A stretch of DNA of 64,000 bases from Marsupella aquatica. Lineage: Eukaryota > Plantae > Marchantiophyta. Below the pieces are notes generated by a model. The model did not search any database. It was not told where the DNA came from and worked only from the letters and a program-made list of their open reading frames with translations. A program made the position numbers and the translations under genes. Location: NCBI GenBank assembly GCA_973895155.1, contig OZ316894.1:24054709-24118708 (forward strand), in the 5' to 3' direction. Positions 7,945 through 31,619 of this stretch are shown piece after piece. How positions within the stretch are numbered: the stretch's first letter is position 1; the number at the start of each line of letters is the position of its first letter.

Positions 7945-9771
7945 CTAATCGTCGCATTTGGAACAAGGGGAACGGTGGGAAGGCAGGTTCGTCGTGAGTG
8001 ATCGTCTAGTCTGAAGCATTCGAGGCGATGAGGGAGCTCGCTTGTTGATCTCTCAAATTGCTGTTCGAGTCTTCTACGTACTGTAGAATTTGCATCATAC
8101 TGGCCGCGATTCCTGGTGAATGAACTTTTTCTTCGCTGAGGATCGACTGATTCGTAGCTGCAGCTCTCTCGTATTGGAAGCCCGTTCGTCGTGACAGCGG
8201 TTGACACATAAGTGAGTGCCGAAGACTTCGCTTACAGGTACATTTGAGCAAATGTCGTTGGTGACTCTTCCAATATCGGGTTATCCTAGGATGCTGAGGT
8301 TTATTTGCCCATCGCAAGCAGTGTTTGTCAGCGAATGTGAAGGCATTCAAGACTATTAGTGTGCGTATTGTGTTAGTTATCTTTCCCGCTAAGACTGGTC
8401 TCGAATGCTTGGAGGTCCGTAGGTATGCATTGTAACCTTTGCTAACCCTTGCCAAGGTTCTGAAGATTGGAACCTACGTAAATGGAAAACCTCCAAGGTC
8501 TTTAGATAATTTGTGTCTGGGGATCGGAGGGATATCCCAGCTTTACAGTCAGTGACCAATAGGTAATAGACGTTCTTTTGAGAGAAGAATATTCTTGACA
8601 GAAGTGACGAGAGGGCGAGACAAGTCCACACCCTTTCAGACTATTGATCGCTCTAGACGCAAGAGATCGCTATAGGACGCTATAGACTGAGCGATCTATA
8701 TCGACTTGTACAATCAGTTCCAAATCAGACTTTGGGAATATTGCTGTTGAGGAGTAAGGATCGCAATTAATATTTGGGCACAGAGTATCGACGCCTTGCC
8801 AGCCCCTTCACATTGCATGTTTTTGCGAATCTGCTGTCTGTGCAGTAGGTAGGTACATTCCCGTGAGACTGGAGCATTAGTGTATAGAAACTCTAGAACT
8901 CCACGACGTCTTTCGTGTCAGATTTCTGTCGGAGTTGATTGTGAGCTATGAAGTGGTCCCACCTGGCCCTCTTATCTGCCCTCCTTTCGGCTTAGTTTCC
9001 AGGTGCAAATATTCTTTCTTATGGACAGCAAATAACTGATATCAGCCAATTATCTAAGTCGAAGATCTCGATACCACCGTTCCACACCTTTTTACGGTAC
9101 TTCACTCTATCACGATATCTATACTCTGTACCAAACAGTACATAATTTATTTTTCTGTCACATCTTTGACGAAGAATAACGTGACGAGGAAACACATTCC
9201 GATAGTAGGCGAAAGCTGCAGCGAAATTCCGTAGATTTAGTGTGCAAGATCCTGCGTAGTCGGGCGCTCGAATGAGTTTACCACAGCGTAATGCCACTAC
9301 AGATGAATCACTTGATTCTTTGAGGTTTTATCAGCTTGTGCTTATCATATACGAAGTAACATTTATGCTTATTCGAGCTTGAACAATCTAGTCTCTCGCA
9401 TGTTCGAAATAAACTTATTAACGCTTGACGGCAGTACGTTATCACGAGATCTCCTGGAGAAATCATTGTAATGATTCCCTATCCATGTTGCAAAATCTGT
9501 GCTGATTGCTGTTGCTCACCCGTTCACTGATATATAGGTTAAATGTATGACTACAGTTGCCGCTTCCCAGGTTCAATTCCTTCAGCACGTGCGAGCATTT
9601 TGGGAGCGGTGGTGAATCTGTTTGCTTGATTTCCTTCTGCCGGACATGGACTGTGCCACCTTCAGTTCATGCTGCTGTCCGTGAACACGCAATTATTCGT
9701 TGACTTATCATACTGGTTCGCACTTCGCAGATTTATTCAGGGAAAAGTTGGATTCTCAAGCAGCTTCCTCG

Positions 9772-10554
9772 ATGGCCGTAGTGGCTAACACTCAGAAGTC
9801 ATTTCACCGATCGACACATTTGATATTTTACTTCGTACTTCTGTGTATGGAATTTTCGCCTGTTGTCCCACAGATTCCTGCTGCCTCCCCCGTACCTTCA
9901 CCTGGAGGACTACCACCGGCATCTGCTGAGGTACCATCTCCCGCTGGACCGTTACAACCGGAACCTCAGGTGACGAATCTCATTGAAGCTCTAAGGGATG
10001 CTGGACGATTCGGAGCAATGGCTGGGCTTCTCGACGGGCTGCAAATGAAGAGCCTCACTCCTATGACGACCTGGTTCGTGCCAAACGATCAAGCTTTTTC
10101 TGGCGTTAACTATCCCAAAAATGTTACGACGTTCCTCGACTCTCACGTAATACGGGAGTTTCTTCCATTTTCAAGATTGTTGAGCTTGAGCATTGGCACC
10201 CTCATACCAACGTTCCTCGGAACAGAGGTGCTTGTTGTGACAAACAACAACCAATTCAATTTCTCAGTCGACAACGCGATGATAGTCGTCCCGGATCTTT
10301 ACAGCGACAGCACCGTTGTGGTTCACGGCATTGATGCAGTTATGGATGATGCTAGGTTTAATGGAATAGCTTCCCCCGCTGCACCCATTGTGCCTCCCTT
10401 AGCCGCTCCTCCCACTTCGTTGCCGATCCCAGCGGGAGGAGTTTTTCCGTTCAATGTTACTATTCCAAATGCTGCTCACAGTCTCTATGCGTCTAGAACC
10501 TTATATTTGACAATCGCTTCAGTACCACTCATGGTTGCGGCAGTACTATTATAG
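9772..10554 (+). CDS. Fasciclin-like arabinogalactan protein (single FAS1 domain, probable GPI anchor)
   Basis: Intact ORF (first ATG 9772): hydrophobic N-terminal signal, Pro/Ala/Ser-rich AGP segments, FAS1 H1 (TWFVPNDQAF) and H2 (VVVHGIDAVM) motifs, hydrophobic C-terminal tail. Confidence 0.92.
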   Translation: MAVVANTQKSFHRSTHLIFYFVLLCMEFSPVVPQIPAASPVPSPGGLPPASAEVPSPAGPLQPEPQVTNLIEALRDAGRFGAMAGLLDGLQMKSLTPMTTWFVPNDQAFSGVNYPKNVTTFLDSHVIREFLPFSRLLSLSIGTLIPTFLGTEVLVVTNNNQFNFSVDNAMIVVPDLYSDSTVVVHGIDAVMDDARFNGIASPAAPIVPPLAAPPTSLPIPAGGVFPFNVTIPNAAHSLYASRTLYLTIASVPLMVAAVLL

Positions 10555-12091: not shown

Positions 12092-13997
12092 TCAATAAAG
12101 AACCTCATCATATACAACATTTTTTGTCAACTTTGCTTGACCCTCCTCGGAATCTGAAAATAAAACCTTGATAGTTGTAGGTGATGTTGCCCTTGAGAAT
12201 GCTACATACAACTGTCCATGACTAAATACAGGCTTTGAAAGTTGCAACCCTACAGACCTTGAGCCTTGTTTATGGTCATTGCATATGCCACTCGAACGGT
12301 AAATTGGACCCTACGTAATAAAAATGGAAGTGACTCGTCAGACGTCAACGGAATCCGTGGGATAAATGTAAGGGTCCCTGCATGTTTTCCTGCGAGAACA
12401 CGTGCCTCAATGACACGACGATTCATTGCTCTCACAATTAGCCGAGTACCATTACACAACCCCAAAGAGTGATCTATATTCCTAAGTAAAATGATAGGGC
12501 ATCCAACCTTCAGTACCAACTTATGAGGCGGCAGACCACTCGGCGTGAGTGTATTCAAGAACTCCGTAGGGTAGAAATTCTCCCCTTCGAGCTGATCTGG
12601 ACGATCTACGCTAAAAAACTCACTTGATTCCCCGGGAAGTCCTTCTAAGATAGAGTCATTAATTTTTAGTTCCTCGTCATTTGTCGGCGCCAGGATAGTT
12701 CTCTCACTTAAGAACCTATCGTCCACATTAGCAAGAGTCGGGTATATTGCCTGAATCAATGATTCCACTCGTCCCCCATCCACCACCATAAACTCAGGGC
12801 AAGTAATAAGATTATTTGAAGGCCCTCCTTTTGGGAGTTTATCATCGCCCAATTGTAGTAGCCACTCCGCAAATGTAACATTACCAAATTCAGGAGAGGC
12901 ATTAGTTCCTCTTGCCTGCATATTTTCAGTTAGCTTCAAAGTCCGTATACTACTCCACACATAAGACTTCTTCAAACACGACCACACAATCTCCGAACGA
13001 CTTGCCCTTGCCTTCACTGGAAGCACTTGTCAAAAATCACCTGCAAATACAACTACAACCCCTCCAAAGATTTGGTCATTATCTTGTATGTCGTGTAAAG
13101 TTCTATCCAACGCCTCCACTCCATGCCGATGGATCATGGGTGCTTCATCCCACAAAATAAAAGTTTCCCTTTGCAATAATCCAGCAAGGTCAGATTGTTT
13201 TTGGATGCTGCATGTCGATGTCGAGATTGGTTTCAATGGTAGCTTGAATCTTGAGTGTGCGGTGCGACCTCCATTTAGCAAAAGACTTGCAATACCCGAG
13301 GAAGCTACGGCCAATGCAATGTCCCCATCTGCACGGACTCTCCGAAGTAGAACATTCTCCACAAATGTTTTTCCAGTCCCCCCTGGTCCATCAATAAAGA
13401 ATGTCGCTCCATCTCGAGCCCTCATTGCTGCAAGTATTGTAGTGTACGTTGCCCTTTGACCCTCGTTCAACAATGGCTCCTGCTCTGCAAGTTGTTGTCG
13501 AAGTATATCCATCGGGTAATGTGTCTCCTCTCTTATCAACCGGTTTCTATTTCTTCCTCTTGGAAAAACTCCATACCTGGTTCCGGACGACCAAACTTGA
13601 GCAATGTTTTACCCACACTTTTCAAAGCCTCATCCATCAAATGTAGAGCAAAGCTTTGTTGCTGCTGCTCCATAGAATCTAAGAAGCCCATTGATTGCAA
13701 ACAATACCTACAATCATCACTCAAATTGGATGCATGTTGTGTCCACAGGTCGCACGGCTTGGCAACACCTTCAAATAACAATATTGTGATAAATAGTTGC
13801 CGAATTTGCGCACCGGTGTGCATGCTTGCTGCTTCTTGAAGGCATCTATCCCACTCCTCATTGTTCTCATACAAACCCCGGGCAAGAGCCGCGGCGTGAA
13901 AGGTTGGGTAAACATTGCCCTCAAATGTGCGAAGGTCGATGAACGATGTTGCACCTTTGATGCGAAGAAGAAGCGCCCTCAAGTAATACCGTTCACC
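12092..13997 (-). pseudogene. Helitron RepHel, C-terminal part (PIF1 helicase), disrupted
   Basis: GERYYLRALL, DGPGGTGKTF (Walker A), WDEAPM, GDF(R>stop)Q.LPV, GLCNGTRL, YAMTINKAQG, FSHGQLYVAFSR, TKNVVYDEVLY-stop. Contains stops and frameshifts. Confidence 0.93.
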
Positions 13998-14296
13998 TGT
14001 TGTCAAACACTTGTCAAGGAGCTTAAGCAAATTTTCTCCCCAAAAGACTACCTAATACCTGCTCCATATCATACGAGGTCACAAAAGATTGACAAAACTT
14101 CTGAAATGTGCCTACAATGTCTAATCACTCCATACATAAGTAGTTTCAACTCTCCACTTCTAGAGAGGTAGTCTCCTCGACTACTTTTGTACTCACACCC
14201 TTCCCCTCTCCTCTACTCCAAGGATTAGCAAGGGCTGGGGATCTCCGCTCCAAGCTGTCACCTTAGAGTAGATTCTCACACAAACACCCAAGAACC

Positions 14297-14595
14297 CAAA
14301 GTGCTTTCCTCTTCAAGCTTAAGTCTCCTCAAGACCCTCAAAGTAGTGTTACCTCTCAACCTTGCCCCCGGCCTTGGTTTTGGTCCACACATCCCCTTTA
14401 GCTCTAAAGAAGGCTCCTCTATCTAAGGACTCTTCCTCTTGTACTTACTTTTTGTTGTAATTTACAGTCACACACCAAGAAAAGTACTTTCCACCCTCAA
14501 GCTATAATCCTCTCTAAGTCTCAAAGTAGTGCTCTACCTTAACCTTGCCTCCTTGGCCTTGGTTTTGTACTAGCACATCCCCTTTGAGCTTAGAC
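14297..14595. repeat. Imperfect ~180-bp-period direct duplication near the left end of the large insertion
   Basis: aaagt.ctttcc...tcaagct...tcaaagtagtg...aaccttgcc...ggccttggttttg...cacatccccttt at ~14297 and ~14481. Confidence 0.7.
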
Positions 14596-15359
14596 CAAGA
14601 TTACACCATAGCATGGACTCTTCTCTTGCTCCCATACACTTCAAATGGGTATGATAGCCATGACAGAAAACAAAAAACAAAAAACCTGTTACCAGGGGTT
14701 TATTTTCTGTTAACAGGGAAATTGTACCTGTTACTAGTAAGCTTGTCCCTGTTACCAGTTTTGCCTGAACCATAACGTGCATATCCACCACTCTAAGGTG
14801 CATATCCACCACTCTAATGGCATAATTTTTCGGGGGGCAATAAAGTTTAAAACAAACAATTATTTTGTGCCATCCGATGGATGAAGTGTACTATCAATCC
14901 TCCATTGACACAACAATTTATTATAGAAGATAAAAAACATGGTATTAGGAGTGTGCCTAAAGAAACATTCATGCAAATCAATCTATTTTCATCGCCAAAT
15001 AGTGACCCTTAGAGTGGGACCCACCATAGCACATGTCAATCGTGGAGTCCAAATCAACCCAATCTAAAGGAGTTGATTAAATGGACCTTGTAACGTCACA
15101 AACAAATGACAAATCACATCCTCGAGGCTTTGAAGACAGTAGACAATTTAATCAACTTACACATTTTAAATAAAACAAGAGGTCATTCTTCCACAATGCA
15201 CGTACATAATGAAGCAATGAATATCCAGTTTCCTAGAACCAGCGCCCGACGCTAACCAACAAAGTCTCAATAAAACAACTAAAATATCCGTTGGAAAAAG
15301 ACAAAATAGGGAATAACCGTTATATTGAACGACGACCTATTGGGCAGTTTCGATCTCTC

Positions 15360-18300
15360 TCATAAGCCATTCAAGTTCTGCATCTCCAGCACAAGCTTGA
15401 CTTCACCTAAAGTCAAAATAGGTTGGCTACAAAGAGTCGACTCCTCAATCTCAAGTTTGAAAACATTTATGTACACCCAGTATAGATGTTTGCAAGGCAT
15501 GTACGACTTGCCACGCGAATGTCGGAGGAAGAAGTCTTCACAAGAGCAAGCGGGGAAGATACAGATTTGGACGAAGTATGTGCTTGGTGATCGATGGTTC
15601 TCATGGGTTCGAATTCGAAATTGCTTTCCAAAAGCATTTCCGGTCTGAACATTCCATTCCCCATCCAAACTCATCACTTCTTGTCGTGCAGACTCCATTC
15701 GCTTCGTGTGACCCATAGTGAGATTAGACCGAGGCCTTGAGTTCCTCCCATTCCGACTACCAAGTCGGAGATTCAGCTCCAAAAACCTTATTGTTTCTGG
15801 GAACACGTTAACATTTATCCTGAGGTCAAAAGCAGATGGCACAGATTGACTCAATCCTGTTGTTCGCGCTAAGACAAGTCCTTGCTCTTCCAGGAATGTA
15901 ATTTCAGAAGGAGACAGGCTCGTACCCTTCAGAACAGGCAAAATGTCAGGAAAAGGAGGAAGCTTCTGAACACCACGACGCGGATGACTCTTGTAACACG
16001 CTTGGTTCGGGCAAAACCAAATCATTTCGGAGATGGGTTCGCCCCTGAAGAGACGATGGCCCTTCACGACAATTCTGACAACACCTTCAGACGAATGGAA
16101 GCCAACCTTCTTGATACGATTTTGACACTCATCGCGATCCGAACTCCCATTTAGTGTACCATTGCATTGCGGACCTGCTCCATACTTTGATGTCCGTCGC
16201 AACTGCCACTGCCCCGGAGGGACATCCTTCTCTAGCACAATCGTGCGTGGAAGTTGATTCTGAAGTGCTGCTGGGGCACTGAGTGGAGGTTTTGAGGATC
16301 TTGTTGTTTGGGTTGTTTGAGGAGTATAGTCCAGTGAATCAGTATCACTCTCTGATGTGACCATACCTGAGAGATTCACTGCCTTTGTGACAGGATGATC
16401 AGAACTTGAGGGAATAGAAGAAAAGTCAGTTCTGTTCAGGTTCTTCCTTTTCAAACCACGAGTATTTGGTGTGGTTATTAGAACGGTGTCATGCCGATGG
16501 GAATCTTGTGGAGAGACAGTCCCAGTTGCATGTCCCTTCCTCTTCATTGACTTCGTCATTATATCTCCATTCAGGGGAGTACTTCTTTCCAAATCGAATT
16601 CTGCTGCGTTAGATAGAAGCATATTAGTCGCTTCTTCAAACAATCTTGGCGAACCTGCTTGATTGGCAGAACGGAACGCTAATTCCCATATAGTTGGCCC
16701 CTTCCCCCGGTTCAAGCCTTTACGGTATGCACTGTATCCGGCAACTTGAGACAGAGCACGGTTTTGGTCAACTTTGCAAGCTTCATAAAGACCGACCTTT
16801 TTCTTTGTAGCCGAGGCTTTCATGGACGCATGCCTTGATTCTGACCCTGTACAGTTGGGGATCAAGGCACCTTCCTCAGCGCTTTTGCTCTGCCATACGA
16901 AAATGTCAACCGTAAGTAGTATTCTATTACCAGCGCCCGGCGCTGGCAACATAAATATGTAGAACAGGCCTGAAATACAATTTCAATGTTTAATACTGAA
17001 TTCTAACTACATATTGGCTTCAATTTCTTGTACTACTTGTTTTGACGTGTATGGAGAAAATAACCAGCGCCTGGCGCTAATATGAAGTTGATGAACATTA
17101 CAATCTAGATAGATGGATGCCTTACCACTCGAATAAAATTGCCCCACTGGCGCCAGCGAACAACCCACCAAGATATCCAGCTTTGCAGCATCTTCAGCTT
17201 TCCGGGGACACAGTTTCCTGATTGCCACCACACAACAATCTCTCGGGACACCCGGTATGCTGCCACAAATGATGGTGCATTTCTCAGTTTCTCCCAAAGT
17301 CTTCGATGCTCCGATTGACATTCTTCCAGTACTCCTTCCTTGGAATGATGATGAAAAGATTGATAAAAGTGAAATGCATCAGAGCGCTCCCTCTCCGGGT
17401 CCGGGTGTCCACCAAAAAAAACATTTTGCACTGCATTCCATCCAGCTTGTGCATTGTCGGCCATAAATCCTTGGATGACAACCTCCTGAAGTTCATTTTC
17501 TTTGCAAACCTCAATCATCACTCTCCATGCCTTTTTGAAGGACTCAGTGTCTTCACCTTTCAACTCGCATATGAAAATTGTACACAGTGCACGGAAATTG
17601 TGGTCGTAGACGTGTGCGCTGAAAGTAAACCAATCCGTGGTGACACGCTGCATCACATCAAAACTTACCCAGGGTCCTTCGAGTCTTCCACCCGGTTGCA
17701 TCTGCCTCAAAAGATCCACACCGGAACCGTGACCTTTCACGGTCATTTTAAAGATGTGAGGCCTATCGTTCTGACATCCCTGACCTGGAAGCAAATACCT
17801 TTGGAGAAACGACACATGAATCCTCCTCTGCATTTGCAAGAGAAAATCTAATTCACCCCGACCTTTTTGGTCTATCCTAACGCTCCGACAAAGAGATGCA
17901 AACTTCTGCGGAGTGGAAAGGACCATCAGAGACTTCCATATTTCAGTTTCTTTGATATCGACCATGTCGTCAACATGTTCGCAGAGAGATTTCACTAAGG
18001 ACCCTGTAGCAGAATTCAAGATCCCTGCCGGTTTTGACAGAGGATTGGCTTCATGTTTTTTTTTAATTAGATCCTCAGCTATCTTCTCCGCACTCCTACA
18101 GAAGGTTTTTCTACCTGGATGGTTGTGCTCACCTATATGAATTGCCAAGCGGGACATATGACTACATGTTTCCGCATCAAGTAATACTTGGGGGTACATG
18201 TAAAACAAACGAGCAGGGCAGTACTTCACACAAAAAGGAATCTGTTCGCAGTAATGACAAACAACACCTCCCTCTTCGATGAAAGATCCCACAGCATACT

Positions 18301-19111
18301 GACCACTGAGCTTTGGAGTACCCTACCATGCCTTAGCATTTGCCTTCTTCTTCCTTTGGAAATAGTCGCAAGACTTGTTCCTGCATTCAATGAATCCCGT
18401 ACAGGTAACCTTCCCAAACTGCCAAAGGTTTTTAGGATGAACAGTTGCAGTTGTTGGAAATATGCGTGTCCAAATGTAACAATCTTTGGCATGATCCATG
18501 TCCCTAAGCCTAGAGCCTTTAGAGAGCATCTTATCAATGGGTGGCAACTCAAACACGACGTTACCATTGTACTTAGTTGGCAGACAAGACACTTGTTCAT
18601 GCCTGAAATCACCCGCTGATATGAACCATGACAACTCACTATGACTAGTTGATTTGAGTAACGTATCCATCGCATTGCGCCGGTACACGACCTCCAACTG
18701 CTTAGAGCTTCCCGGAGTCTCAGCTTTCACGACAGCAGGGAGCGGGCTTTTCTTCTTCGATGGTGGACTTAGAGTACGATCTCCATCCTCACTTGAAGAA
18801 ATCTCAACCACATCACATGGAACCGACGGGAAACTGGACAGTCCTGCATGCTGTCTTAAACAAACCGAGTACAAGATCCCTGCGTAGAGATGCCAAAACC
18901 GTTCACCGTCATCGACATTGAACGTTGCAGCATCCTCGATATCATCAATGGATTCGAGCTCTCAAACAATGGCCTCAATGTCATTCATCTTCAAATCAAA
19001 TCTCCCGCAGAGATACCTCTCCCGGACCTGCTTGTACGTATCTTCCATGGGGACGGGGATAGTCACAATATCTTCAGAACCGAATCGAGAAAGAACGATA
19101 GACCGAGACAT
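15360..19111 (-). pseudogene. MULE/Mutator-like transposase with GCM/WRKY-like zinc-finger N-terminus and C-terminal SWIM finger
   Basis: ORFs 18962-19111, 18323-18874 and 17105-18292 are in one frame separated by single stops. Cys/His cluster (CTG..C.N..C; C..C...C...CPA...H.G.H.HP), core FDVMQRV...FMADNAQ...DAFH...SESRH, SWIM CSCEDF...PCKHL. Intron ~16890-17125. Confidence 0.75.
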
Positions 19112-19299
19112 GGTGAACAAAAACAAAAACTGAGGGCTATAGCGTTTGAAAGAAGAAAAGTTCATGGTATTGTTCAGCTTATATCTGTCAAACCTGGGAA
19201 TTTGACGTTAACCGATCCGTTTGTATACGACATAAAACATAGACGATGGAGGATCCGTTGGCACCATAAATGATTTTTGTCGTTTTTTCCCCGAGAAGT

Positions 19300-20075
19300 C
19301 CGGATGTCAGACACGAACATATTGCTAAAAAGATCACCAACCTTACTTAAACAGACCATAAGATATGACAAGGTATTGTCAAATTTTAGTAGCGCCTGGC
19401 GCTAACTAAAATACGCCACTAAAAATGTGTCTGAAATCTCGACATTCCAAACTAGCGCCCGGCGCTAGTATAGAATAAATTCCCTGAAAATGAACATTAT
19501 GACCACATACCAGGTGGTAATTGGGAATAAATGGTGCCTTCAAAGGATGGTTTTGATTGATTATGGATGATAAATAAACATTTATACTAGCGCCGGGCGC
19601 TAGTATTACATTTGAGAAATATTTCTCCGTAAACGATGTACTGAAGGATACTTTAATAAAATATGGGGGTGGAAAGGCCAAAATTTATGTCATAGCTCCT
19701 TCAAAAAAGACCTCTAAATTTCTTCCAGTTTATACTAGCGTCGGGCGCTATTATAAGCATACTCTAAATTGTTCACCTTGATGGTCATCATTAATGCTAG
19801 CGCCCGACGCTAGTATTGATATGATGTTAGGAAATGTCTTTAACGGTAACATTCAACGGTAACTTATGACTTCCGTGTGTGTTACGCATCTTCTACCGTT
19901 TGATTTTGGTAATTAAACCTTCCGTATACAGACGTTGGAAACTGCGAAACATCAGAGCTAATGGCTTTCCTCTAGGTTATGTCATCCTCCCGCTAGAATA
20001 TATTACACGTTCAGAGATGATTATAGTTCCATAATTTCATTGTACGATAGTTCGTACACTTCTAGAAGGAAGACG
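19300..20075. promoter_or_regulatory. Divergent intergenic/promoter region with 5 clustered AGCGC palindromes
   Basis: AT-rich spacer between the minus-strand MULE-like gene and the plus-strand ParB-like gene. Palindromes at 19391-19811. Confidence 0.55.
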
Positions 20076-23000
20076 ATGGAGGTATTCCCCTCTTCTTCCA
20101 GAGGGTATAGTGCGGTTCCTGACCAGGAGCGAGCTTATTCTGAATCTTTGCAGTCTTCGTTTACTGGTTCAGTCTATACACGTCGTGTAACTCGTTCCTC
20201 AAAGTTGTTGCCGCTCACTTCTGTCAGCGGTGTTTTGGGTCCAAATCCTTTGCAAAGAAAGATGGACAACGTAGACACAATTGCGATCTAGGATGTTGCG
20301 GATTGCGCGCTTGCTGAGATTGATCTCATTTCGAAACATGTCATGTCTTTTGGAAAGGATTCTCGTGGATTTGACAAGGAGCCGCCTCGAATCCCTCTAT
20401 GTCGATTGGTTCACATGGAGGTGGTTCGTACTCTGCAGAAAGACAGCTCTTCCATCGAGAAGCTGAAAGACTCTTTTCGTAGTATGGGTTACAACTCTTC
20501 GATAGGGATGCGTTTCTATGTGCAGCCAACGGATGAGAACGGAATTGTTCTGACCTGTACCCAGGACATTCGTGATTCATGGGATCCAATATGGCAATTG
20601 GAGAACGAGAAGTTTGAGGCTGAATGCGAGGCTGACCCAGATTTTCTCGTCTTGAAGGATAAGATGTTCTCTGTATTCGATGGAAATCACAGGTTGTACT
20701 CCTGGACGCTTGTAACAGAGGAGAACCCGGACAATCCAAAATATCATCCTCGTGTGCTCTGTACAATATTTAAAGGAGACAAGGGATCTCTCATTGAAAT
20801 TGAGGTAGCTATGCACACGTGAATCAGTAAGTTCTCATGATTTCCAGTTCTTTCCTTAAATCTTGCGAGTGTTGTATTTACTAGCGCTCGGCGCTGCTTA
20901 TACATGAATTGTTTTTCATTGACTCTTACTCTCAACGTTTGTTCGTGTAGGCTTGGCCAAGCAGTTGTAGAGCCTTCCTGGATCCTGGATGCGGACATAA
21001 TCAAACGAATTCTGGCGCATGACCTTGAGTATTACAATAAACTAATTGACCCGGGTAATTTCAAGAAGTTTGAAAGCATTCGGATGAAAACTCGGAAGGG
21101 GTCATAGTATACGAAGAAGATGCCACAAGAAGCACTTGTTTACATTCTTTGTGAGAATAAGATAAAGTTGTACTCGCATCAATTCAAACTCGACATGGAG
21201 GTAGCGGAGGCTCAAGGGAGTCCATGGTAGGCGGACGAGATTTCAAAACGGCATGCGGCCATGATGAAAGACGCAACCAAAGATTGGGCAGTGAAGTCTT
21301 CAAAAATTACGCCCTTATTAAGTCCTGAATTTGAAGATTTCCTTAGTACATGTGCAGAAATGTATGCTGTCACAGAGAGAAACAAGAGAGAGAAGAAGCC
21401 TGACACCGTTGTATGTACGATGGACCGCGCACGATTGTTCACCATTGTTTCTGCTCTAGACCCAAAGTTACGAAGCACTTTACTTGTGGCACATTGCAAT
21501 CCTGAGCTGCGGAGATAGTTTTTTCACCCAGCAAGTGTTAACGATGATTTAGTCAAACAGTGGTGCCACACTTGGATCACTTGGAATAGTGTGGAGGGAA
21601 TTGCTGCTGGCATGTTACATTCATGTCTACGTGAAGTTGAGCAAACCATGCCCGCGAATAGATTGGAAGAGTGGAATTGTAGTTTGTTTGATGATCTAGT
21701 TCAGTTTGTTACAAATGAATTCAAGAGATTTGGTGATTCCGTGAAGAATAAGTTCTTTCACACTATGTGGCCTTCAAAGTACCCTGACAAAGAAGATTAC
21801 ACCCAGAGAAACCAGAAGCGAGCGAAGAGGTTTGTGTATAGGTTCTACATGCACATGGAGGTAACCAAACCTGATTACTTCTGGGCATATCCTGCAGCTT
21901 TTATGAAGTGGATTTCAATAAGTGAAGATGATGCCTTGGCTGATTTGTACTCTATGTACCCCACGGAGGGCATATTTCCTCCGAGACCAATGACAGAATG
22001 GGAGAGAACTCACTGCCCCTGGTATCTAGATATAGATAGATGGGATTCTCTTTTTGATCAAAGGGAAAAAGATGCCTTCCATAAGCTTTCAAAGTCTCAG
22101 ATGCCAGCAAAACTTGTGTCCGACATGAAGCAAGGTCTACTTGACGATGTAGACAAGTCTGCCACAAACTTGCAAACTATCTGTGAAACAACTGTTGTGC
22201 ATGTGGACCGGAGTCGCAAACCTCGCGCGAAAGCCAAAGCGGAGCTAGCAGCACCGAGCGAGTCTACTAAATCTGGAAAGAAGAGTAAGTATTGCTATCC
22301 ATGATTTTGCCAGCGCCAGGCGCTGGCAAAAAATATTTTGTTGAGGGTATTCTCTTTCTTGGTTATTAGGCTTCGGTTGCGACTTAAGTGAATTGCATTT
22401 GGTTAGCGCTAGGCGCTAGCTTCTTTCAATACTTTAAAAGTACTTATTCTAACTACGACCTGGTTATATTTTAGGAGGGAGGAAGTCTAATACGGTGGGA
22501 ACGGGAGATACGAAAAAGGATGCTACACCTGAAGTTTCTGAGGCAAACACGGGAGCTCGATTAGACCCCATTACTCCAGTTGACAAAGGGAAGGTTATAG
22601 TTCCTATCGACGCCACGAGTACCAAGAAGAAACGAAAGAGAGCTGTCGAAGGTGGACAATCTTTAAGGGAGAGTTTTATAGCTTCTGGTTTCCAACGTGA
22701 AGTTGGAAACTTCAAAACAACTATGTCTCGCCATTGCATGGTTGAGACAAGCCTTTCTGAATTTTTTGACTCGATGTTCAACAAGGAGGAGAAGCCCGAG
22801 TGGGTTAGTGATGTGGAGAAATGGGGAAAAGACCTCGTTAAGTTGGGATTTAAAGAGAAGGGAGTTGTTCGGGGGGGAAAAGTAAGATCATTTGGAGTGG
22901 ATGCCGGCTTCATTTACCTACCGACCGGGTTCAAACCATCTATCATTGATAAGAAGGTTCCTAAATGGAACATTCCAGATCACTCAATGGCTAGATCTTT

Positions 23001-24159
23001 TTTCAAATCCATGGATCCATTTTTATCAGATGATGGGTTCCTTGTAATTCTACACAATGGGGAGTACGATCCCATGTCGCAAGTCATTGCTGCCTGTCAG
23101 GAGTCAAGGAAATTTCAGTGTATATGCTCGCATAATGTTGTGATGTCTGACCCGATGTATGCGGCAAAGACATACCGAGAGATGTTTACCCTCAGGCTCA
23201 ACATATTTGGCTGAATTAATGGGAAATGTAAAATTCCCAAAGACCCCAAATTTTGGCCACTGTCCATCAGTGAGGACCCTTCGGTTACCAATTTGATCGG
23301 ACTCTCTTCGCTCAAATCAGATCCATTCCCGCAAATGGAGTTTGCTGGAAATGCTCGTCTGTCTGTGGGTTTTATGCAATCTGTTATAGAGCTTGTCACA
23401 CGGCCTCGTGATATTTTTATGGATTGGACTGCTGGGGCTGGAGGCTCTTACATTGCTGACGACTTCTCTGGACGATTTGTACTCGGGATAGAACACCGGA
23501 AAGAATTTATTGAAACCGCTTCAAAGGTTTTCATGGATTTGTTGTCTCCCAAAGAGATTGCAGTGTTACCTCCACCTGTTCCTACTGCCGACAGAAAAAA
23601 AAAAGATAAGCTTTGATCGGTTCTCAATTTTGATTTTGATGATGAATCGAGTGAAGGTGGAGAGGAACAAGGTACAAGAAACTCCGAGGAGGAAAAGGGT
23701 GAGCGTCGTGCAGCTGTAGATGAAACCGATAGTGATGACTCTTCCGAGTAATGTTCATAAACTCGTAAGCTTCTTTCTCCATTCCCGTCAATTCATAACA
23801 TTTCTTTTGTTGTTTTGGGGAAAGGCACCTTACAAAATGGACTTTGTTATATCAGGTCAGAGTGGAATGCAAGGAGACAATTCAAACTGCGGAGGAAGAT
23901 CGCGAGACACAACGTAGAAATACCGGAAAAACCGTTTGTTCTTCCCTCCTATGCAGAGAAAGCCGCAAGGAAAGCAGAAAGTGCAAGGACACTTTGCTGG
24001 GAAAACAAAGGTCTTCGGTTACGAAGGGGTGTTGACCGAAAGTTCATTAAACATCCTTATGTTGATGACTTCTCCCGCAGCCAGTACGTAGATGATGAGG
24101 CTGTGTCCACGGACAGATCCCAGAGTACAGATTCTGGTTCCGACTCAGAATCTTGGTAG
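20076..24159 (+). pseudogene. Large spliced gene: ParB/Srx-like N-terminal domain + C-terminal beta-class amino-methyltransferase-like domain
   Basis: IEKLKDSFRSMGY...VFDGNHRLYSW (ParB-N signature GxHR) at 20343-20822. C-terminal FMQSVIELVTRPRDIFMDWTAGAGGS.IA..FSGRFVLGIE (SAM-binding motif I in beta order) at 23293-23616. Degenerate motif IV candidate FIYLPTG and FLSDDG.L in 22495-23214. Introns ~20827-20950 and ~22286-22474. Several premature stops. 3' end uncertain. Confidence 0.65.
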
Positions 24160-24419
24160 TTGAGGCTAAATCTTTTAGCAGCGCCCGGCGCTTGTAACAT
24201 CTGTATTATTTCCCTCTGCTGAGGGTCCTTTTAAATTGTTGATTTCTCTCTACTTGTTGATTACTTTTGACTTTTGTTCTTTACAAGCGCCTGGCGCTCG
24301 CCAAATGGAATCTCTAAATGGCCGTTTAGTCTTTGTTGTTTCCTGTCAACGGTCATCGTCATTGGATACCAACTGCCATTTGGATTGTGTTCTTTAGTCA
24401 GTCGTCGGAAAACCGTTGG

Positions 24420-24800
24420 GGACCATAGTTTCGGGACGATGATTCCATAGTTTAGGGACCGGGCGGAAGAGACGACTATAGTTTCAGTTTAGGTTTGTTC
24501 GGGATGACGAGAGTTGGGGACGTCGATAGTTGAGGACAATGATAGTTTCGAGAGGATGATAGAACGGGATGATAGAATGGGAGGGGAGACTTTGTTTCGA
24601 GATGACGATAGAACGTGACGATAGAACGGGATGATAGTTCATTTGGGAAGACTTTGTTTCAGGAAGACAATAGAACGGGACGTTAGAGTAGGGCGATAGA
24701 ACGGGACGATACCTGTTACCAAGGTGAAGATAGTTTCGGGAGGCAATAGAACGGGACGATGATAGTTTGATGGTCGTTTCGGAACGGTAGTGTACGCGAA
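24420..24800. repeat. Degenerate short tandem repeat (gatagaacgggac / gatagtttcggga)
   Basis: More than 10 imperfect copies of gatagaacggga and gatagtttcg units. Confidence 0.75.
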
Positions 24801-24973
24801 CCTTTATCTGGCGTCTTAGTCTTCGCGGACCTTTCTTTGACCTTTGTCGGCTATAGCACTCGCGGACGACGTTCTTACGGGAGGAGAGGTTACATATTAG
24901 ATCGGGATCTTTGAAACATGGCGAGTCAGTATGAGCCAATGGATTGGGAGGCAGCTTTTCGTCCTTCTCGTGT

Positions 24974-25400
24974 CACTACTACATATTGGCCCCTTTTGCA
25001 AAGCTTTTTTTTGACGTCGGGATGGTCTTGCGATGTCATCAACTTCAGATATTTTGTGATCAAACACGCATCACAATAAACCATGCTCACAGGTTCGTAA
25101 CATGGTGTTGCGAAGCTAAATACCTTGCAATTTGTTTGAGATCGGATTGAATTTGCAACTCTTTCAGATACTATTTGTCTCGCAAAGTATTTGTGGATCC
25201 GCGATCATCGCGACTGCATTTGGATCTCTTTTGTTTCATAATTTAGCGATAATAATGTACTCAAATATATATTGTGAACCTATTAGCTTCGCACAATATT
25301 GTGAAGCATAAATAGTCGCAAGTTACCGAATCCAGTTGATTCGCAAAGTTGAGAACACATTGGCATCACAATTACCGATGGTGTGTTATTCACAAAGTGT
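24974..25400 (+). mobile_element. CACTA-like terminus (CACTACTACA) with ttgcga/tcgcaa subterminal repeats
   Basis: CACTACTACAT at 24974 followed by many (t)tgcga/tcgca(a) motifs in both orientations. Partner end not confirmed. Confidence 0.5.
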
Positions 25401-25728
25401 TCAGAAGTTGCTTCTTGACAAGCTTGAAAATGCTTTGCAAAGAGAGTTGTTTGAAAATTTTGTAGAATGGAAATGTTTGAGAGAGTTTCTTTACAAGATG
25501 GAGAATGCATGTGTTTAGGTTACAGCTAGGGTTTTCAAAAAGGTGGCATGCATGAGGATAGCTTTGGAAACGGCTAAGGTTGCATATATAACAGTGAGAT
25601 GAAATTTCAAAGTCCAATTAAGTGTTTGTAAAACAAAAGAAGAAAAGTAATATGTTAATATAAATAAAACCATGATAGTTAGTTTAGGGTCAAATTCTGG
25701 GCCCACAACAAGTTTTACTACTAGTGCA

Positions 25729-28700
25729 TCAAACCTGGTCCTCATCCTCGCCTCCATTTGACACAATAATAACGTCAGGTTTTTCCGAGATAATGGAACG
25801 GGACCGTGGCACATACGGTATAACAATTGACCACTCTAGGTCTGGTGGGTACGGAATATAGAAACACTGCTCAAGGTGACTTGGGAATGTAAATGGTTCA
25901 GATGTTTGCCAATGAGATGGTTGAAAGCTAGTTGCTGATGTCTTCAGTCGAGTAAACCCACACTCATCAAGAAGTACCGTGCGATTATCACCAACCAGGT
26001 GAATTTTGAACCACTTACACTTGAAGATATACTCTTCAAATTTGGAATCGGCATCATAGGATATGATCAAGATCTCCTCAATCTTCCCATAGTGAGGCAC
26101 CACATCTCTGATCACATTAGTGTCATGACGGCTACTTTGTGAATCTTGCATGAACTGCCCTTGAACTCCACAATCAAAAGTTCTTCCCCTCTTCTCATCA
26201 AGGTCAGAAATCCTGAAATGCCTCCCTTGTGTCCACATTGCTGTTCTGGTTTGAACAAGTCTTAAAGGACCATGAACAATTGTTCGAACCTCAGGAGTCA
26301 TATCTGGAAAATGTGATACATTCTCACCTTGGGCCACCATAGCATCCAATTGAAGTACTTTCTCCTTCATATACTCAAGGAACTTTGGAAAGATCCTTGG
26401 GCGACGACTCTCCCTCTTTGCATCCTCATAAAACTCTCTCCAATCTTCCATCACATTGTTGTTACTCAACATGAAAGTACTAACCTGTGTCAACTCCACT
26501 GCGGTTAGTAAGCGTGTTTTTTTTGCACCTGTTAAACGGTCCTCCTCCACTTCCCTCTCTTCCATCCAAGTGCGTGGAAAACTAGGATCAATGGTAGCTA
26601 AGATGTTACTACAATAAAACATACTCTCAGCTGCCAAGTATCCAGTTGCCATGCTCCCCTCCACTCGTGCACGGTTCCGTACATAAGCCTTTAACACGGC
26701 CATATACCTTTCCAGCCAATACATCCACCTACAATGCACCGGACCGGCAATGGCAACCTCCCTCACAAGATGAACGAGAAGATGCACCTGACAATCAAAG
26801 AAGGAAGGAGGGAGGGCCTTCTCCAACTTGCATACCACCTCTGCTGCCAATACCTCCATCCGTGGTATCTCTTCTTCATATATTTCCTTTGAGCATATCC
26901 ATCTCAACAAAGTGCCCAGTGACCAAAGGGCGTCTTGCACTTCTTCACTCCCCAAACCTATGATTGCCACAGGAAGTATATGTTGTAGTAAACGATGATA
27001 GTCATGTGTCTTGAGATACATTGGCCATTTATGACTGTCCTCCATCCCAAAAGCCTTACGTAGATTGGCACCATAGCCTGTAGGAAACCGCATCTGCCCT
27101 ATGCGTTGTCGAAACTCTCTTCTTTCACCAACACTCAAAACCCATGGAGCTGAAGGACGATGTTCCATCCCTGTGGATTCATCAACTATTATCCATACAT
27201 CTGGATGTCGTTCTAGATCCTGGCATGCCTCCCTAAAATTAATGTTCTTTTCCCCATAAAAGTGCTTGATCAAAGCCTTCCCAACATTTCCCTCTATATG
27301 CATGGGGTCTAACAAGTGATGAATCTTCAACTCAGACCAATAGGGCAAAGTGGCCAGTATACCCCACCTTGTCAATCCACTACCATCAAATCCCATGGCA
27401 TCTTCAGGGTCTGCCACCCTATCAGCTATGGACTTCCAATACGAAAATGTGGTGCGGTCAGGTATCTCACGCTCATCACCATTGATCATGTCAAAGTCTG
27501 AAAACAAAAGGGGGTCAGACCTCATGTGATGCCCAAGTGGAAGAAACTTGGTATGACCAAGGTAGATTATCTTGTGCAGCCATTTTGAGTACTTGGCCAT
27601 ATCGTGAAGGCTTGGACCACAAAGTGGAGCATGCCTTGTACCCTTGAGTTTGGAACCCAGAAACAAACCCAAACCCTGCTCACAAAATAACATTCTCAAT
27701 TAGAGTCAAAGGAATTGAAAAGTTCATGTACATAGAATTAAAGAGGGACTTCCTTCCAAACAAACTTGATCTCCAATACATGAAAAAAATACAAATCCAT
27801 ACCACTCACCTGGATAGTCATGCATGGTCCACATAATGATTCCCTTCAATTGGAAGACACGTGGTAACCCTCCTGTAGTTGTCCGATCATCATATGCCCA
27901 TACACCCCCCCATAATTTATGGAGTTCCCCAACCAAGAGCGCCAAGTAGGTGTCCATGTTTTTTACCTTAGATGGACCTGGGATAATCAATGATAGCAAT
28001 AAGAATCCCTTTTTCATGGACAACCATGGGGGAAGGTTGTAATTCATAACAACCACCGGCCAAACCGAAGTAGGGCGCCCTTTCCCTCCAAGGGAGTGTG
28101 GGCTTACCCCATCTGATGCCAACCCCAACCTCACATGACGAGGGTCACGTGCAAATTCTGGCCATTGTGACTCCACATGCTTGTGAGCAGGGGAATCAAC
28201 TGGCAACCGCATGACACCGGCCTCTAATCGATGTGTCTTATGCCATACCATCAATTCTGCCAAGTCAGAACATCGGTACATGTGCAACAATCGAGGAATA
28301 ATAGGAAACCAACGAACAGCTTTTCTAGGCACCTTTGAGGTCAACATGTTGGTTTCATATCGAGGCTCTTGACAAATTGGACACTCAGTTGCGTTGGCAT
28401 TGGTCTCATGATAGAGAATGCAGTCATTCACACAAGCATGAATGATATGGTATTCCATGCCAATGGATGATAGAACCCTCTTTGCCTCCTTCCAAGTTCC
28501 TGGCAACACATTTTCACTAGGTAACAAGAGATCATGGCAAATTGCAAACAAATCCGATAGTAGCGCATTGCTTGCCTTGTGTTTTGCCTGAAGATTCATC
28601 AATGCCAAGATGGCAGATAGTCTATTCAAACGAGCACCCCCATAAATAGGTGTTCTAGCATGTGCCTCAGCTTCTTCCCATTGTTTTTGTCCTTCAGGTG

Positions 28701-28999
28701 TACGTTGAGGCCTTGGATCATGTGCAACATTTGGTGGAGGGTCTCCTTCATTGGGTGGGACACCTCCTTCACCACCAATGTCTACACCAAACCAATCTGT
28801 CATGAAGTCATCCATGGCTGACTCTTGGTCTTGCATGACCTCATAATCTGTCCGAGGTGCCCCTTCATCTGGACTGTCATTATCATTGTCACTTGATGAG
28901 GAATCTGCTGATGATGTTTCCCCGTCTTGTGGCAAGCCCATTTCTTGATATGTAGCTCTCAACCTCCTTGGCAACATATCTTGACTAGGCCGCACATTC
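25729..28999 (-). pseudogene. EnSpm/CACTA Tnp2-type transposase (Transposase_21 + DUF4218 + DUF4216-like)
   Basis: IHACVNDCILY, CPICQEPRY, WFPIIPRL, RHVRLGLASDG, YNLPPW, HDYPG, LDPMHIEGN, KTHDYH, PPSFFD..VHLLVHL, WMY.LERYM.VLK.YVRNRARVEGS, YGKIEEI, FKCKWF. Intron ~27677-27808 and an apparent frameshift just after it. Confidence 0.93.
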
Positions 29000-29148
29000 T
29001 ATAGAAAATACAATAAAGTATTCACAATGAAATTAACGCCAAATATAGTAGTGCTCGAAACATATTATTAACAATATAAAAAGAACATATCATTACAAAA
29101 CATACGTTCACATACGATGAACGTATAATACATGTCCCTAAAGTAATC

Positions 29149-29965
29149 CTAATCCCATTCATAATGTGTAAACAACTCCTCTCCAACCAGAATGGTCCTA
29201 TTAGCTACAACTAGACAATGGTCATGATGATATCTCTGCCCATAAGGGGCTGGAGGGGGACCATCAACAAAAACCCATTCATAGTTTTTCCTACGCTTAG
29301 GCCGGGTCCCCACAGTACTGTTGATGAAACCGGCAATATTCCCACTACGGATGGGATCACCATCAATTATACGCTGGTCACAATACTTTCTGGTGCAACC
29401 ATCAAAAGTATCCATGTCCAATGCATAAGTCTTCCACTCAGGGTGTTGAACAAGGATCATGTTCCAATGTCTCCTCTTGTAAATGGGTCCACCATACGGG
29501 AACAACGTTGGTCCATCTGAAGAGCGCCCTTTTCCACCCATATCATCCACAATAATGTCCTGACAAGAGAAAATCCCATACCCATGCCTCTCCCCTAGGG
29601 TCGAACTCTTGACAACCCAACGTCTTCCCCAAACTTCTATCTCCTCACCATAGGTTATATCACATGGCAAACCAAGGCACTCCGGATTCCAATCCTTTAT
29701 GATAGGAACACACTTCCCTGTGAAGGTACAAGGGCCCCATCTACCATCAACCCTACAAGTGTACTGATCCACTTCCCCTCTAGGCTGTCTTTTTGACTTT
29801 TTTTTCCCTCTTGTAACAATACCGCCACCCTTAATTGTCCCAACACTACCTTGCCCTGCTGCCACTAAACGAAAAGCTTGTGAAAGTGCCGAGCCTATAG
29901 CATCTAGAACTCCTTGTGAGGGAACATAGGGTGTTGGTGTAGTGGGTGTAGGCCTACTGGATACC
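29149..29965 (-). CDS. SET-domain (lysine methyltransferase-like) exon carried in the CACTA transcription unit
   Basis: Open frame with VKSS...HGYGIFSCQDI, FPYGG, IDG...GNIAGFINS...N, VVANRTILVGEELFTHY: the SET signature motifs. Acceptor AG at ~29966. Confidence 0.8.
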
Positions 29966-30075
29966 TATAGGAAGAAATGGAACCAAGTGAGTGTGATGAA
30001 CCTCCCAAATTTTATTTTATGCTACCTAGCAAGATTTACAAAATAAAATGGAAATCACAGTAAGTTTACAACTCA

Positions 30076-30310
30076 CCATACGGGATGAAGAAGCTCCCGG
30101 TGTAAGACCTCGATGTTGGCCATATCGAGCAATGTGCTCCGCACATACATATGACTTTTGGACAACCATCCCCACACTTTTTTTACAACCACAAAGTTGG
30201 CGTGGTGGACCACTAGGTCGACGTACGGTTGGTTCAGGTTGAGGAGGAGGATGACTTTCTTCATCGGAAGAGGAATCTGATGTGGTGGAAGTTGTAGAGG
30301 ATGAAGACAT
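30076..30310 (-). CDS. Putative shared first exon of the CACTA unit (Ser/acidic tract + C-x-C...H motif)
   Basis: MSSSSTTS...QLCGCKK...CAEHIARYG, ending in a GTGAG donor at ~30075. Resembles the transposase-associated domain N-terminal to Tnp2. Confidence 0.55.
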
Positions 30311-31619
30311 CTGACAAGTATAGCAATTGGAAGGCAATTAGTAAAAACTTCACCAAAACCATCATTGATAATCCCTACCTAAATATATTAAAAAGAATTG
30401 ACAGAAAAATACCTTTATGAGACCCGGGCTTAGCAATGCCTTGACGATTTTGTGGGAGGGAATGGATCTTGACTATGTTGTCTGGGTTTGGACGCATCTT
30501 GTCTCCAAGAAATGACTAGTTTTCTAGTTAGTTTTTGGCTAGCGCCGAGCGCTATTCATGTATTAGTCGAAAACCTCCGACGGTGTCGACCGTGACTTCA
30601 TGGATGGGATTTTTAGGCCAGATTGTTGATGTTGATAACTGCATTTTGTATCACTTAAGCCGAGCGCGTTTTCTATTTTGCGATAATATATGCGAATGTT
30701 TTTTCCGGCCTTTCTTTTCTACTTGTATTTGTCTTGGATTTTGTGTATCTCAATTGGCAGCCATCTTTTATGTTTCAAAAAATTGTTTCCGTGTTGTTCT
30801 TTTATTTATCACGAGGGTTTGGTGGTTTTGTTTTCTATTCTTGTACTTTCAAATGGAGATTTTGAGACCTTTTTTTAAGATCACTTTTCACGACCATCCA
30901 AACACTGTTCACTGGTAACAGCTACCAGTGAACAGTTTCCTGTTACTATTACCAGTGAACAGTTTCCTGTTACTGTTATCTGTTTGCTGTCGTTTGTAAA
31001 TTCCCCCTTCAAATGCACTCACACTTAATGGTCACAATGAAGATTGGTCACAATGAAGATTGACAAGGTGCATTGCAAGATTGAGGACTACCAAAGCAGG
31101 CAAAAAGTCTCAAGTCCTTTCACTAATCCAAAGGACTATCAACGGCCAAGATTAGCACATCTAAAGTCAAAAAGGACTTAAACAAATCAAATGCGTATAA
31201 GATGCATTCATTAGTATTTCAGCTCCCGAGGTAACCCCTTTCTTGTCGCAACTATAATTTATGAGTGAAGGACAACCGGTTCTCTAGGAGAGTGCTGGTG
31301 CTATTAGTTCTGCGTGGAGGACTTTTCAAAAACAAGGAGTCAAAGTCCTTTGGGGAAACTCATTTTTTGTCCCGACATATAATTTACAGTTGGACAACTA
31401 GTTCTGTGGGAGAATGTCGTCGGCGCTACTAGTTTCGCAGGGAATTTTCAAAATCTAGGAGTGAGAGTCCTTCTCACTTAGGCGCGAGCTACAATTTGTT
31501 CAGAAAGTATCGAAGCCGAGCGCAAGGGTCCATACTTAGCCTCGTGAAGCACAAGATGGATGCCTCTGTGAGAATTCATTCAAGAGCAGTCGTGCAATGA
31601 TGTGAGATTCAAGATGTTC

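Follow-up and report, generated by a model that had tools for sequence, protein, structure and literature searches.

Palindromic Sites of a Giant Transposon in Marsupella aquatica and Their Candidate ParB-Fold Reader

Introduction

Dedicated self-recognition, by a protein together with the sites that it reads, is known in few transposons; VANDAL elements with their VANC proteins are the worked example, and a red-algal case has been put forward as a preprint proposal. A stretch of 64,000 nucleotides from the liverwort Marsupella aquatica (GenBank assembly GCA_973895155.1, contig OZ316894.1, positions 24,054,709 to 24,118,708 of the forward strand; hereafter the window) raises the question of what reads a short palindrome that recurs 14 times in the non-coding parts of one giant DNA transposon. 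This element occupies 14648..31006 of the window and carries a transposase-like gene (geneA), a divergently oriented gene whose product begins with a ParB/sulfiredoxin-fold domain (geneB), and a Tnp2 (EnSpm/CACTA-type) transposase gene with a SET-like exon. Conserved and specific to the element, the palindromes are genuine non-coding sites of this transposon. We tentatively regard them as candidate binding sites for a protein encoded by the element itself, most probably the ParB-fold protein of geneB, a reading that leans on analogy and that we hold at slightly less than even likelihood.

To the red-algal proposal the locus adds a sequence-defined symmetric site of about 19-25 bp together with exact element borders, evidence that this site persists where the DNA around it has diverged, both in other copies and in another organism, and a candidate reader with a ParB fold. 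Here, we describe the sites, the element that holds them and its genes, and weigh the proteins and processes that might account for them.

The Palindromes and Their Placement

An initial annotation of the window had listed 14 copies of the palindrome. Its own pattern, AGCGCNNGGCGCT, gives 19 strand-matches, which correspond to 11 distinct sites (mean of 100 shuffles, 0.00), and a scan with AGCGCNNNGCGCT at no more than one mismatch returns exactly the 14 listed sites, from 15241 to 30541, at a chance expectation of 0.32. Allowing two mismatches adds one site only, at 1950 and outside the element, where 0.65 are expected. All 14 sites lie within 15241-30553; the remaining 47.6 kb of the window hold none at up to one mismatch, and shuffles predict 0.3-0.7 sites across the 64 kb. 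No other 6+1+6 palindrome is present in the window more than twice. A scan of viral contigs for CTAGCGCCNGGCGCTAG gave three single sites, taken for chance, and an Rfam search gave no matching family.

The core of the motif is a 6+1+6 palindrome, AGCGCC-N-GGCGCT, which is perfect in eight copies and carries one mismatch in the remaining six, where every single-letter deviation is a C>T or G>A transition. The centre letter is free (C in six copies, T in three, G in three, A in two). The flanks had been described in the initial annotation as unrelated; instead, positions ±7 to ±11 show a palindromic preference, with A or G at -9 and T or C at +9 in all 14 copies and C at -8 in 11 of them, and further out the left flank is T-rich and the right flank A-rich. 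The extended consensus, approximately TTT-RCY-AGCGCC-N-GGCGCT-RGY-AAA, is thus symmetric over about 19-25 bp. Each site holds two RGCGCY words flanking CCNGG, with invariant outer A/T, and the core is rich in CpG and CCG. Conserved arms around a variable centre had been proposed to mark the site of a dimeric protein, and the symmetric site with its free centre fits that proposal.

Selection for a hairpin finds less agreement with the copies. Within copies, 46 of 84 flank pairs are complementary against a mean of 38.5, a value reached by 1155 of 20,000 shuffles; this complementarity hardly exceeds what the column preferences give, so that the site appears to be read as sequence and not kept as a stem, and hairpin covariation of the flanks was dropped as a candidate after this test. 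Stem length varies from 5 to 12 bp across copies. Some could form stems of 10-12 bp (as DNA, -9.6 to -15.2 kcal/mol; z -4.7 to -5.8), others reach only 5-6 bp, and for two copies about a tenth of the shuffles fold at least as well. Together, form and folding point to a symmetric sequence for a protein dimer rather than to a selected hairpin.

Five palindromes fall within 421 bp of the interval that separates the divergently oriented geneA and geneB (19112..20075; GC content 35% without the cores). They form the densest group and stand 265-685 bp upstream of the ATG of geneB and, on the other side, 280-700 bp upstream of that of geneA. Three of these are perfect (19391..19403, 19454..19466, and 19589..19601, the last at the midpoint of the 25-nt palindrome TATACTAGCGCCGGGCGCTAGTAT), and two carry one transition each (19737..19749, AGCGTCGGGCGCT, whose T is shared by the contigs aligned there, and 19799..19811, AGCGCCCGACGCT, where the transition is private to this copy). 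Another five lie in three frame-restoring GT-AG introns: 16932..16944 and 17066..17078, both perfect, in the 236-nt intron of geneA; 20883..20895 (AGCGCTCGGCGCT, one transition) in the first intron of geneB, of about 130 nt; and 22312..22324 and 22405..22417 together in a 190-nt intron of geneB, the former perfect and again the midpoint of a 25-nt perfect palindrome, the latter (AGCGCTAGGCGCT) with one transition private to this copy. Three sites stand past stop codons, namely 15241..15253 (AGCGCCCGACGCT, one transition) at 107 nt beyond the stop of geneA, and the perfect copies 24180..24192 and 24286..24298 at 21 and 127 nt beyond the stop of geneB. The remaining site, 30541..30553 (AGCGCCGAGCGCT, one transition), lies 231 nt upstream of the Tnp2/SET ATG, in line with its earlier placement upstream of the CACTA unit.

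Under our gene models all 14 copies are non-coding, as had been noted from the sequence at the outset; the non-coding share of the element is 27.5%, and 14 of 14 would fall there by chance with a probability of 1.4e-8. The last intron of geneB, read by eye, contains no palindrome, and neither do the candidate introns of the Tnp2 gene. The initial annotation had the motif spanning both the MULE-like and the CACTA genes, which is overstated: with 13 of the 14 copies in the transposase-like/ParB half, left of 24.3 kb, and none in Tnp2 introns, the motif hardly spans the CACTA genes.

Conservation of the Sites in Other Copies and Organisms

Public contigs of four coded runs (X1, X2, X3, and X5) were aligned to 14400-31300, and the conservation of the intergenic sites was followed in the contigs aligned to 19330-19870 (541 nt). 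From X5, which represents a third organism, only 19571-19609, around the palindrome at 19589, and 19783-19821 are covered in this region, by pieces of 31-38 nt; the palindrome bins reach summed depths of 750-7200 and the spacers a depth of 0, with 15 of the 33 aligned contigs fitting two places. In X1 and X2, likewise, contigs of 117-351 nt agree with the window only over 19382-19412 (a 201-nt X2 contig among them), 19424-19476, or 19719-19754 and differ from it beyond these pieces. In diverged copies and in the third organism, only the palindrome units of about 31 nt are therefore alignable and the spacers are not. Several of the loose ends from X1 and X2 faintly resemble the spacers of the window, which argues that they come from diverged homologous promoters and not from new insertions of the units. 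One loose end from X5 holds a further palindrome 30 nt upstream, and the arrays can be denser in that organism.

Of the six imperfect copies, two derive from perfect sites by mutations private to this copy: at 19807, G holds the majority of contig depth in all four runs, and at 22410, C accounts for most of the depth in X1 and X5 and for roughly half in X3. The copy at 30541, the conservation of which had been named in the initial annotation as a test of its proposal, is present in another, near-identical X1 contig (30446-30923, 5 differences). One X1 contig (depth 567) runs from 30556 back to 30446 with 12 letters between; it is a tandem duplication of the 111-nt piece with this palindrome in another copy of the family.

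One Insertion With Mutator-Like Borders

The borders of the element are given by contigs from its empty site. In contigs of three organisms, X1 (three contigs), X3 (three contigs), and X5 (one contig), position 14638 is joined to 31007, with 9 letters that fit both sides. It follows that 14648-31006 is a single insertion flanked by a 9-bp duplication; the contigs derive from copies of the receiving repeat that lack the interruption. The duplication, CTTCAAATG, is an exact repeat at 14639..14647 and 31007..31015. The insertion between its two copies measures 16,359 bp and has the ends GGTATG...TTCCCC; a blastn comparison with the rest of the window found neither a second copy nor any similarity. 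Left subterminal repeats (14685..14758, plus strand) consist of four CCTGTTACCAG-like copies spaced 21 nt apart, and right subterminal repeats (30904..30978) of CTGGTAACAG / ACCAGTGAACAGTTTCCTGTTACT units with a period of 27 nt. As to long terminal inverted repeats, the two ends show a weak likeness by eye, and the repeat finder lists no terminal pair.

A target duplication of about 9 bp is typical for Mutator-type elements, as are GG..CC ends. EnSpm, Plavaka, and their kin have duplications of 2-5 bp and CA..TG ends, as given in the accessible part of an article (PMC12730594), unlike the 9-bp duplication and GG..CC ends found here. By its duplication and ends the element is therefore Mutator-like and not CACTA-like, despite its Tnp2 gene. 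Around the Tnp2 unit no inner CA..TG ends with a duplication of 2-5 bp were found beyond chance, the best candidate having 13/20 matches and a 2-bp repeat. The idea that the block from 14.7 to 31 kb is one composite insertion is thus supported at this locus by the single outer duplication and the empty-site contigs, and the search for a separate CACTA insertion within the block agrees with it.

The flanks of the insertion (14400-14647 and 31007-31300) belong to a high-copy repeat with several diverged variants, the joint having a summed contig depth of about 4000 in X1. Just left of this host repeat, 12253-14051 on the minus strand holds PIF1-like helicase frames (PIF1 4e-51, Pif1_2B 1e-20), possibly part of a Helitron-type element. 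Inside the insertion, between the 3' palindromes of geneB and the end of the Tnp2 gene, 24400-24770 is occupied by an irregular array of GACGATAGAACGG-like 13-mers that also contains a 62-nt unit twice; it could be a second array of protein sites or an old subterminal region.

The Genes of the Element

GeneB (20076..24159, plus strand; ATG at 20076, stop codon 24157-24159) adjoins the densest palindrome cluster and comprises the N-terminal ParB-fold domain, a middle part of about 440 residues, and a methylase-like C-terminal part. It contains five in-frame stops (20289, 21105, 21228, 21516, and 23212), at least one of which is private to this copy, as all contigs aligned at 21106 read G. Together with one in-frame TAG in geneA (18323-18325) this makes six, and the copy of the element in the window is decayed.

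The N-terminal domain (20292..20819, plus strand) shows the invariant patterns FDGNHRL..W and YHPRV in an alignment of 16 sequences, which comprises the domain of geneB and 15 relatives (alignment A3). A structural model based on this alignment reached a predicted local distance difference test (pLDDT) score of 88.1, as compared with 36 for a single-sequence model. A Foldseek comparison of the model has sulfiredoxin, ParB (with a probability of up to 0.97), Noc, and KorB in its top rows, and with VIA-align 10 of 48,161 chains have a Z of at least 2, all of them from the ParB/sulfiredoxin superfamily, with best values for KorB (6.1), sulfiredoxin (5.7), and PadC (5.2). Weak matches to a DGQHR domain occur in 6 of the 16 members of the alignment. 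A ParA-type ATPase is absent from the Pfam matches of the scanned element frames of at least 80 residues, and Pfam detected no family of 2-oxoglutarate (2OG) oxygenases in geneB. In the Atlas features, the ParB-fold domain lies near clusters with DUF3723 in 31% of members (Ascomycota) and ParB_N in 11%, which hints at a fungal accessory family that may share the fold; a literature search for DUF3723 together with ParB found no paper. A scan of metagenomes returned one short relative (L001, 51% identity), and one of prokaryote genomes a 12-residue motif match only.

For the methylase-like part (22475..23613, plus strand) 39 relatives were found. It has a weak N6_N4_Mtase match (E 0.0065) at 23215-23613, and the same profile positions are matched in the relatives P0016 (6e-5) and P0011 (1.6e-3). 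In the alignment of 23 of the relatives (alignment A2; 22453-23211, plus strand) the family reads LP(T/N/S)G, with L156 and P157 invariant.

GeneA (15360..19111, minus strand; ATG at 19111, stop codon 15360-15362) has an intron at 16890-17125 and relatives of 34-50% identity (P0002-P0004). With these it shares an invariant Cys/His-rich N-terminal region, the pattern of which ends in H.H, and it has the C-terminal pattern CxCx16CxH; by eye, the patterns E..ESF..W and ..ADNA..GWNA..F...FH can be recognized as well. We take E..ESF..W, ADNA..GWNA, and CxCx16CxH to be MULE- and SWIM-like, and geneA is likely a Mutator-type transposase. Pfam at E<=1 assigned no family to geneA and found no MULE DDE or SWIM domain in geneA or geneB, and a sequence-profile search of the PDB with the geneA alignment (A1) gave chance-level rows only.

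The Tnp2 transposase gene, with the SET-like exon upstream, occupies 25729..30310 on the minus strand (ATG at 30310). Pfam recognizes Transposase_21 (7e-39), DUF4218 (3e-34), and DUF4216 (5e-6) in it, and the SET match (6.5e-4) is below the Pfam cut-off. Frame-restoring GT-AG introns are possible, and the reading frames are long and less damaged than those of geneA and geneB. Between two large Tnp2 frames, two in-frame stops stand eight codons apart (27700-27726, minus strand), either a short intron or private damage of this copy; at 27621, most contigs of the family are one base shorter. The labels given in the initial annotation have accordingly fared unequally, Tnp2 being strongly supported, SET weakly, and the ParB-like label at the level of the fold, whereas MULE, SWIM, and ParB find no support in Pfam.

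Candidate Readers and Competing Explanations

If the ParB-fold protein is the reader, a dimer of this element-encoded protein would read the symmetric site of about 19 bp, as ParB-parS, KorB, and Noc suggest by analogy, along with the proposal made in the preprint for red-algal transposons. The protein would thereby carry its methylase-like part, and perhaps the SET protein, to the DNA of the transposon itself, and binding at the promoter, in introns, and at gene ends might lead to self-regulation or self-marking of the chromatin of the element, like that of VANC on VANDAL. Since the copy in the window is decayed, with its six in-frame stops, such a mechanism would act in trans from intact members of the family. 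A bolder version, which we consider rather doubtful, holds that the transposon bears a ParB/parS-style module, in which parS-like palindromes distributed over promoter, introns, and gene ends would load a ParB-methylase-like protein that marks the DNA or chromatin of the element as "self" and blocks silencing, and that this cassette moves between superfamilies; site and reader would here sit in a Mutator-type backbone that also holds a CACTA-type transposase. If true, a prokaryotic partition-type module for DNA recognition has been re-used by eukaryotic transposons for epigenetic self-marking, and has been shuffled between Mutator- and CACTA-type elements.

A number of observations weigh against geneB as the reader. 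The fold scores of its N-terminal domain are modest (Foldseek E 0.1-1, Z 5-6), and sequence profiles did not reach ParB: at E<=1, Pfam gave no ParB, MULE, SWIM, or DUF3723 match for geneA, geneB, or the members of the alignment of 16 sequences, and a PDB profile search with this alignment returned chance-level rows only. In canonical ParB the N-terminal domain is not the part that reads DNA; no helix-turn-helix was found in geneB, and its middle 444 residues (with X at three stops) are without a Pfam match. The CTP-binding box of ParB is GERRxR. Here, all 16 sequences have FDGNHRL at the conserved glycine, a form nearer to the sulfiredoxin/DGQHR type, which makes a ParB-like sliding clamp doubtful. 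Enzymes of the N6_N4_Mtase class have the catalytic motif (D/N/S)PP(Y/F), in place of which the relatives have LP(T/N/S)G, so that methylase-like activity is uncertain and the domain might be inactive or have another function. At the locus of the metagenomic relative L001, the 627 nt upstream hold no such palindrome. Of the 7 places that vary among near-identical copies over the 541 nt of the intergenic alignment, 4 lie inside the CpG-rich cores, so that cores seem to decay fast in dead copies. In X5, finally, palindrome units reach a depth of about 7200, as compared with 20-70 for geneB-like DNA (at least 80% likeness) and 10^4 for Tnp2-like DNA; depth does not equal copy number and this is a hint only, and the sites in X5 may be riding mainly on Tnp2-type elements.

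The site conservation observed would fit any protein reader, and the palindromes might instead, as the main alternative, be enhancer-type sites for the Cys/His-rich N-terminal domain of geneA, which resembles WRKY/GCM/FAR1 zinc fingers, or for a host transcription factor. Such sites would drive a bidirectional promoter and could also act from introns, which we regard as possible though on balance not probable. The five densest sites between divergent genes and the invariant Cys/His pattern ending in H.H in geneA and its relatives speak for it, as does the binding of FHY3/FAR1, which derive from Mutator transposases, to the GC-rich CACGCGC. A general host factor is disfavored by the absence of the motif from the other 47.6 kb of the window with its other genes and repeats, and a reader from geneA by the lack of any DNA-binding family in its Pfam results and by the separate CCTGTTACCAG-like subterminal repeats, which are the sites expected for a transposase. 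It is improbable that the palindromes are targets of a DNA-modifying enzyme, be it the methylase-like domain of the element or a host methyltransferase, rather than docking sites. The CpG- and CCG-rich core, the six C>T or G>A deviations, the weak N6_N4_Mtase match in geneB, and the concentration of variable places inside cores, as expected for methylated cytosines, would all suit modification; the methylase-like family, however, does not show the usual catalytic tetrad where one would be expected, and a symmetric preference over 19-25 bp exceeds the usual site lengths of methylases. A DNA cruciform or RNA hairpin, or tiny mobile palindromes inserted repeatedly into tolerant non-coding DNA, would account for the longer stems of some copies and for the recurrence of the units with unlike flanks in contigs. 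Against structure stand the unequal stems, the two copies that fold scarcely better than shuffles, the want of clear compensatory pairing, and the Rfam result; against mobility, the lack of direct repeats, none of which were found beside the units, the absence of any copy outside the element in the window, and loose ends that still resemble the spacers and so mark diverged homologous positions. We therefore judge either form of this explanation very improbable.

One further alternative concerns structure and not function: the Tnp2-SET unit could be a separate EnSpm/Plavaka-type element that became nested in the Mutator-like element before its last jump, in which case the block would consist of two elements instead of forming a designed composite. 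In all four runs the depth of Tnp2-like DNA far exceeds that of the rest, about 100-fold in X5, from which it follows that Tnp2 elements exist independently; the Tnp2 frames are long as compared with the six in-frame stops in geneA and geneB, and all palindromes but one lie left of 24.3 kb. Nesting nevertheless appears unlikely to us, as there is one outer 9-bp duplication only, inner CA..TG ends with a 2-5-bp duplication do not exceed chance, and depth, a weak measure, is similar (604, 562, 604, and 567) in the near-identical contigs that X1 yields for the left end, geneB, and 30446-30923. In the accessible part of the red-algal preprint, moreover, gene sets of this kind are described as belonging regularly to giant elements (bioRxiv 10.1101/2025.02.11.637652).

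Relation to Known Systems

The closest likeness to the present element, with the ParB-fold protein as its candidate reader, is found in red algae. According to the accessible part of the preprint, Bostrychia moritziana harbors 17-19-kb Plavaka elements (17.4-19.1 kb) with the accessory genes PAG1-3, of which PAG1 is of unknown function, PAG2 combines a PF01555 methylase with SET, and PAG3 combines a ParB-like domain (best HHpred match 7BNR_B) with a 2OG oxygenase domain; arrays of inverted repeats lie beside PAG3, self-binding is proposed, and Chondrus crispus has homologues of these genes in giant elements of the Plavaka and Mutator types (bioRxiv 10.1101/2025.02.11.637652). A review, as far as its accessible text goes, describes En/Spm families of 16-20 kb with 4-5 open reading frames in Chondrus crispus (PMC6431247). 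A literature search for Plavaka together with ParB found this preprint only. Like the red-algal elements, the one studied here is giant (16.4 kb) and has a Tnp2/EnSpm-type transposase, a ParB-like domain, for which 7BNR_B is also in the Foldseek list, weak signals of a PF01555-type methylase and of SET, which fall short of the Pfam cut-offs in the present element, and inverted repeats clustered beside the ParB-like gene; this last likeness was drawn from the arrangement of the repeats and not from their sequence. In contrast to PAG3, the ParB-like domain is in one reading unit with a methylase-like part, with no 2OG oxygenase family among the Pfam results for geneB, and unlike in the red-algal elements as described there, SET is found upstream of Tnp2 and sites occur also in introns and at gene ends. 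The kind of system is thus already sketched in the preprint, from which this locus differs by its Mutator-type duplication, the joining of ParB and methylase-like parts, the sites in introns and at gene ends, and a defined motif.

In Arabidopsis, VANC21 binds YAGTATTAY motifs that are concentrated in the introns, between the genes, and in the non-coding termini of VANDAL21, according to the accessible part of the article (PMC5735166). Both are Mutator-type elements with a short motif in their own non-coding parts, the binding protein being putative in the present case, and in both the motif arrays vary in copy number, here through the 111-nt duplication and the denser arrays. The VANC motifs are asymmetric, 9 nt long, and in one orientation, unlike the palindrome of 13-25 bp described here, and for VANDAL21 hypomethylation has been shown, whereas the present element is known from sequence alone. 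A homologue of VANC was not seen in the element, although no search was aimed at one.

With the bacterial pairs ParB-parS, KorB-OB, and Noc-NBS the element has in common an N-terminal domain of the ParB/sulfiredoxin fold, several GC-containing palindromes beside the gene for it, and a dimer-type symmetry. Unlike in these systems, no helix-turn-helix or ParA partner was found with Pfam and no GERRxR in the alignment, the setting is a eukaryotic transposon, and sites are located in introns; a role in segregation is implausible. Fungal DNA transposons of several superfamilies carry TET/JBP dioxygenases that are read as a counter to silencing (PMC12730594). As in those transposons, a putative DNA- or chromatin-modifying gene is part of the element here; the enzyme is a different one, and the accessible part of that article describes no dedicated array of binding sites.

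Other Features of the Window

Beyond the insertion, two adjacent frames at 39159-40811 on the minus strand match DUF7869 (6e-31 and 1e-8) and are probably another transposon gene with a break. A LINE-type retroelement lies at 45726-52098 on the same strand, with endonuclease/exonuclease/phosphatase, RVT_1, zf-RVT, DUF4283, and zf-CCHC matches. The only clear host-type gene signal noticed in the window is a frame with a fasciclin domain (8e-8) at 9685-10551 on the plus strand.

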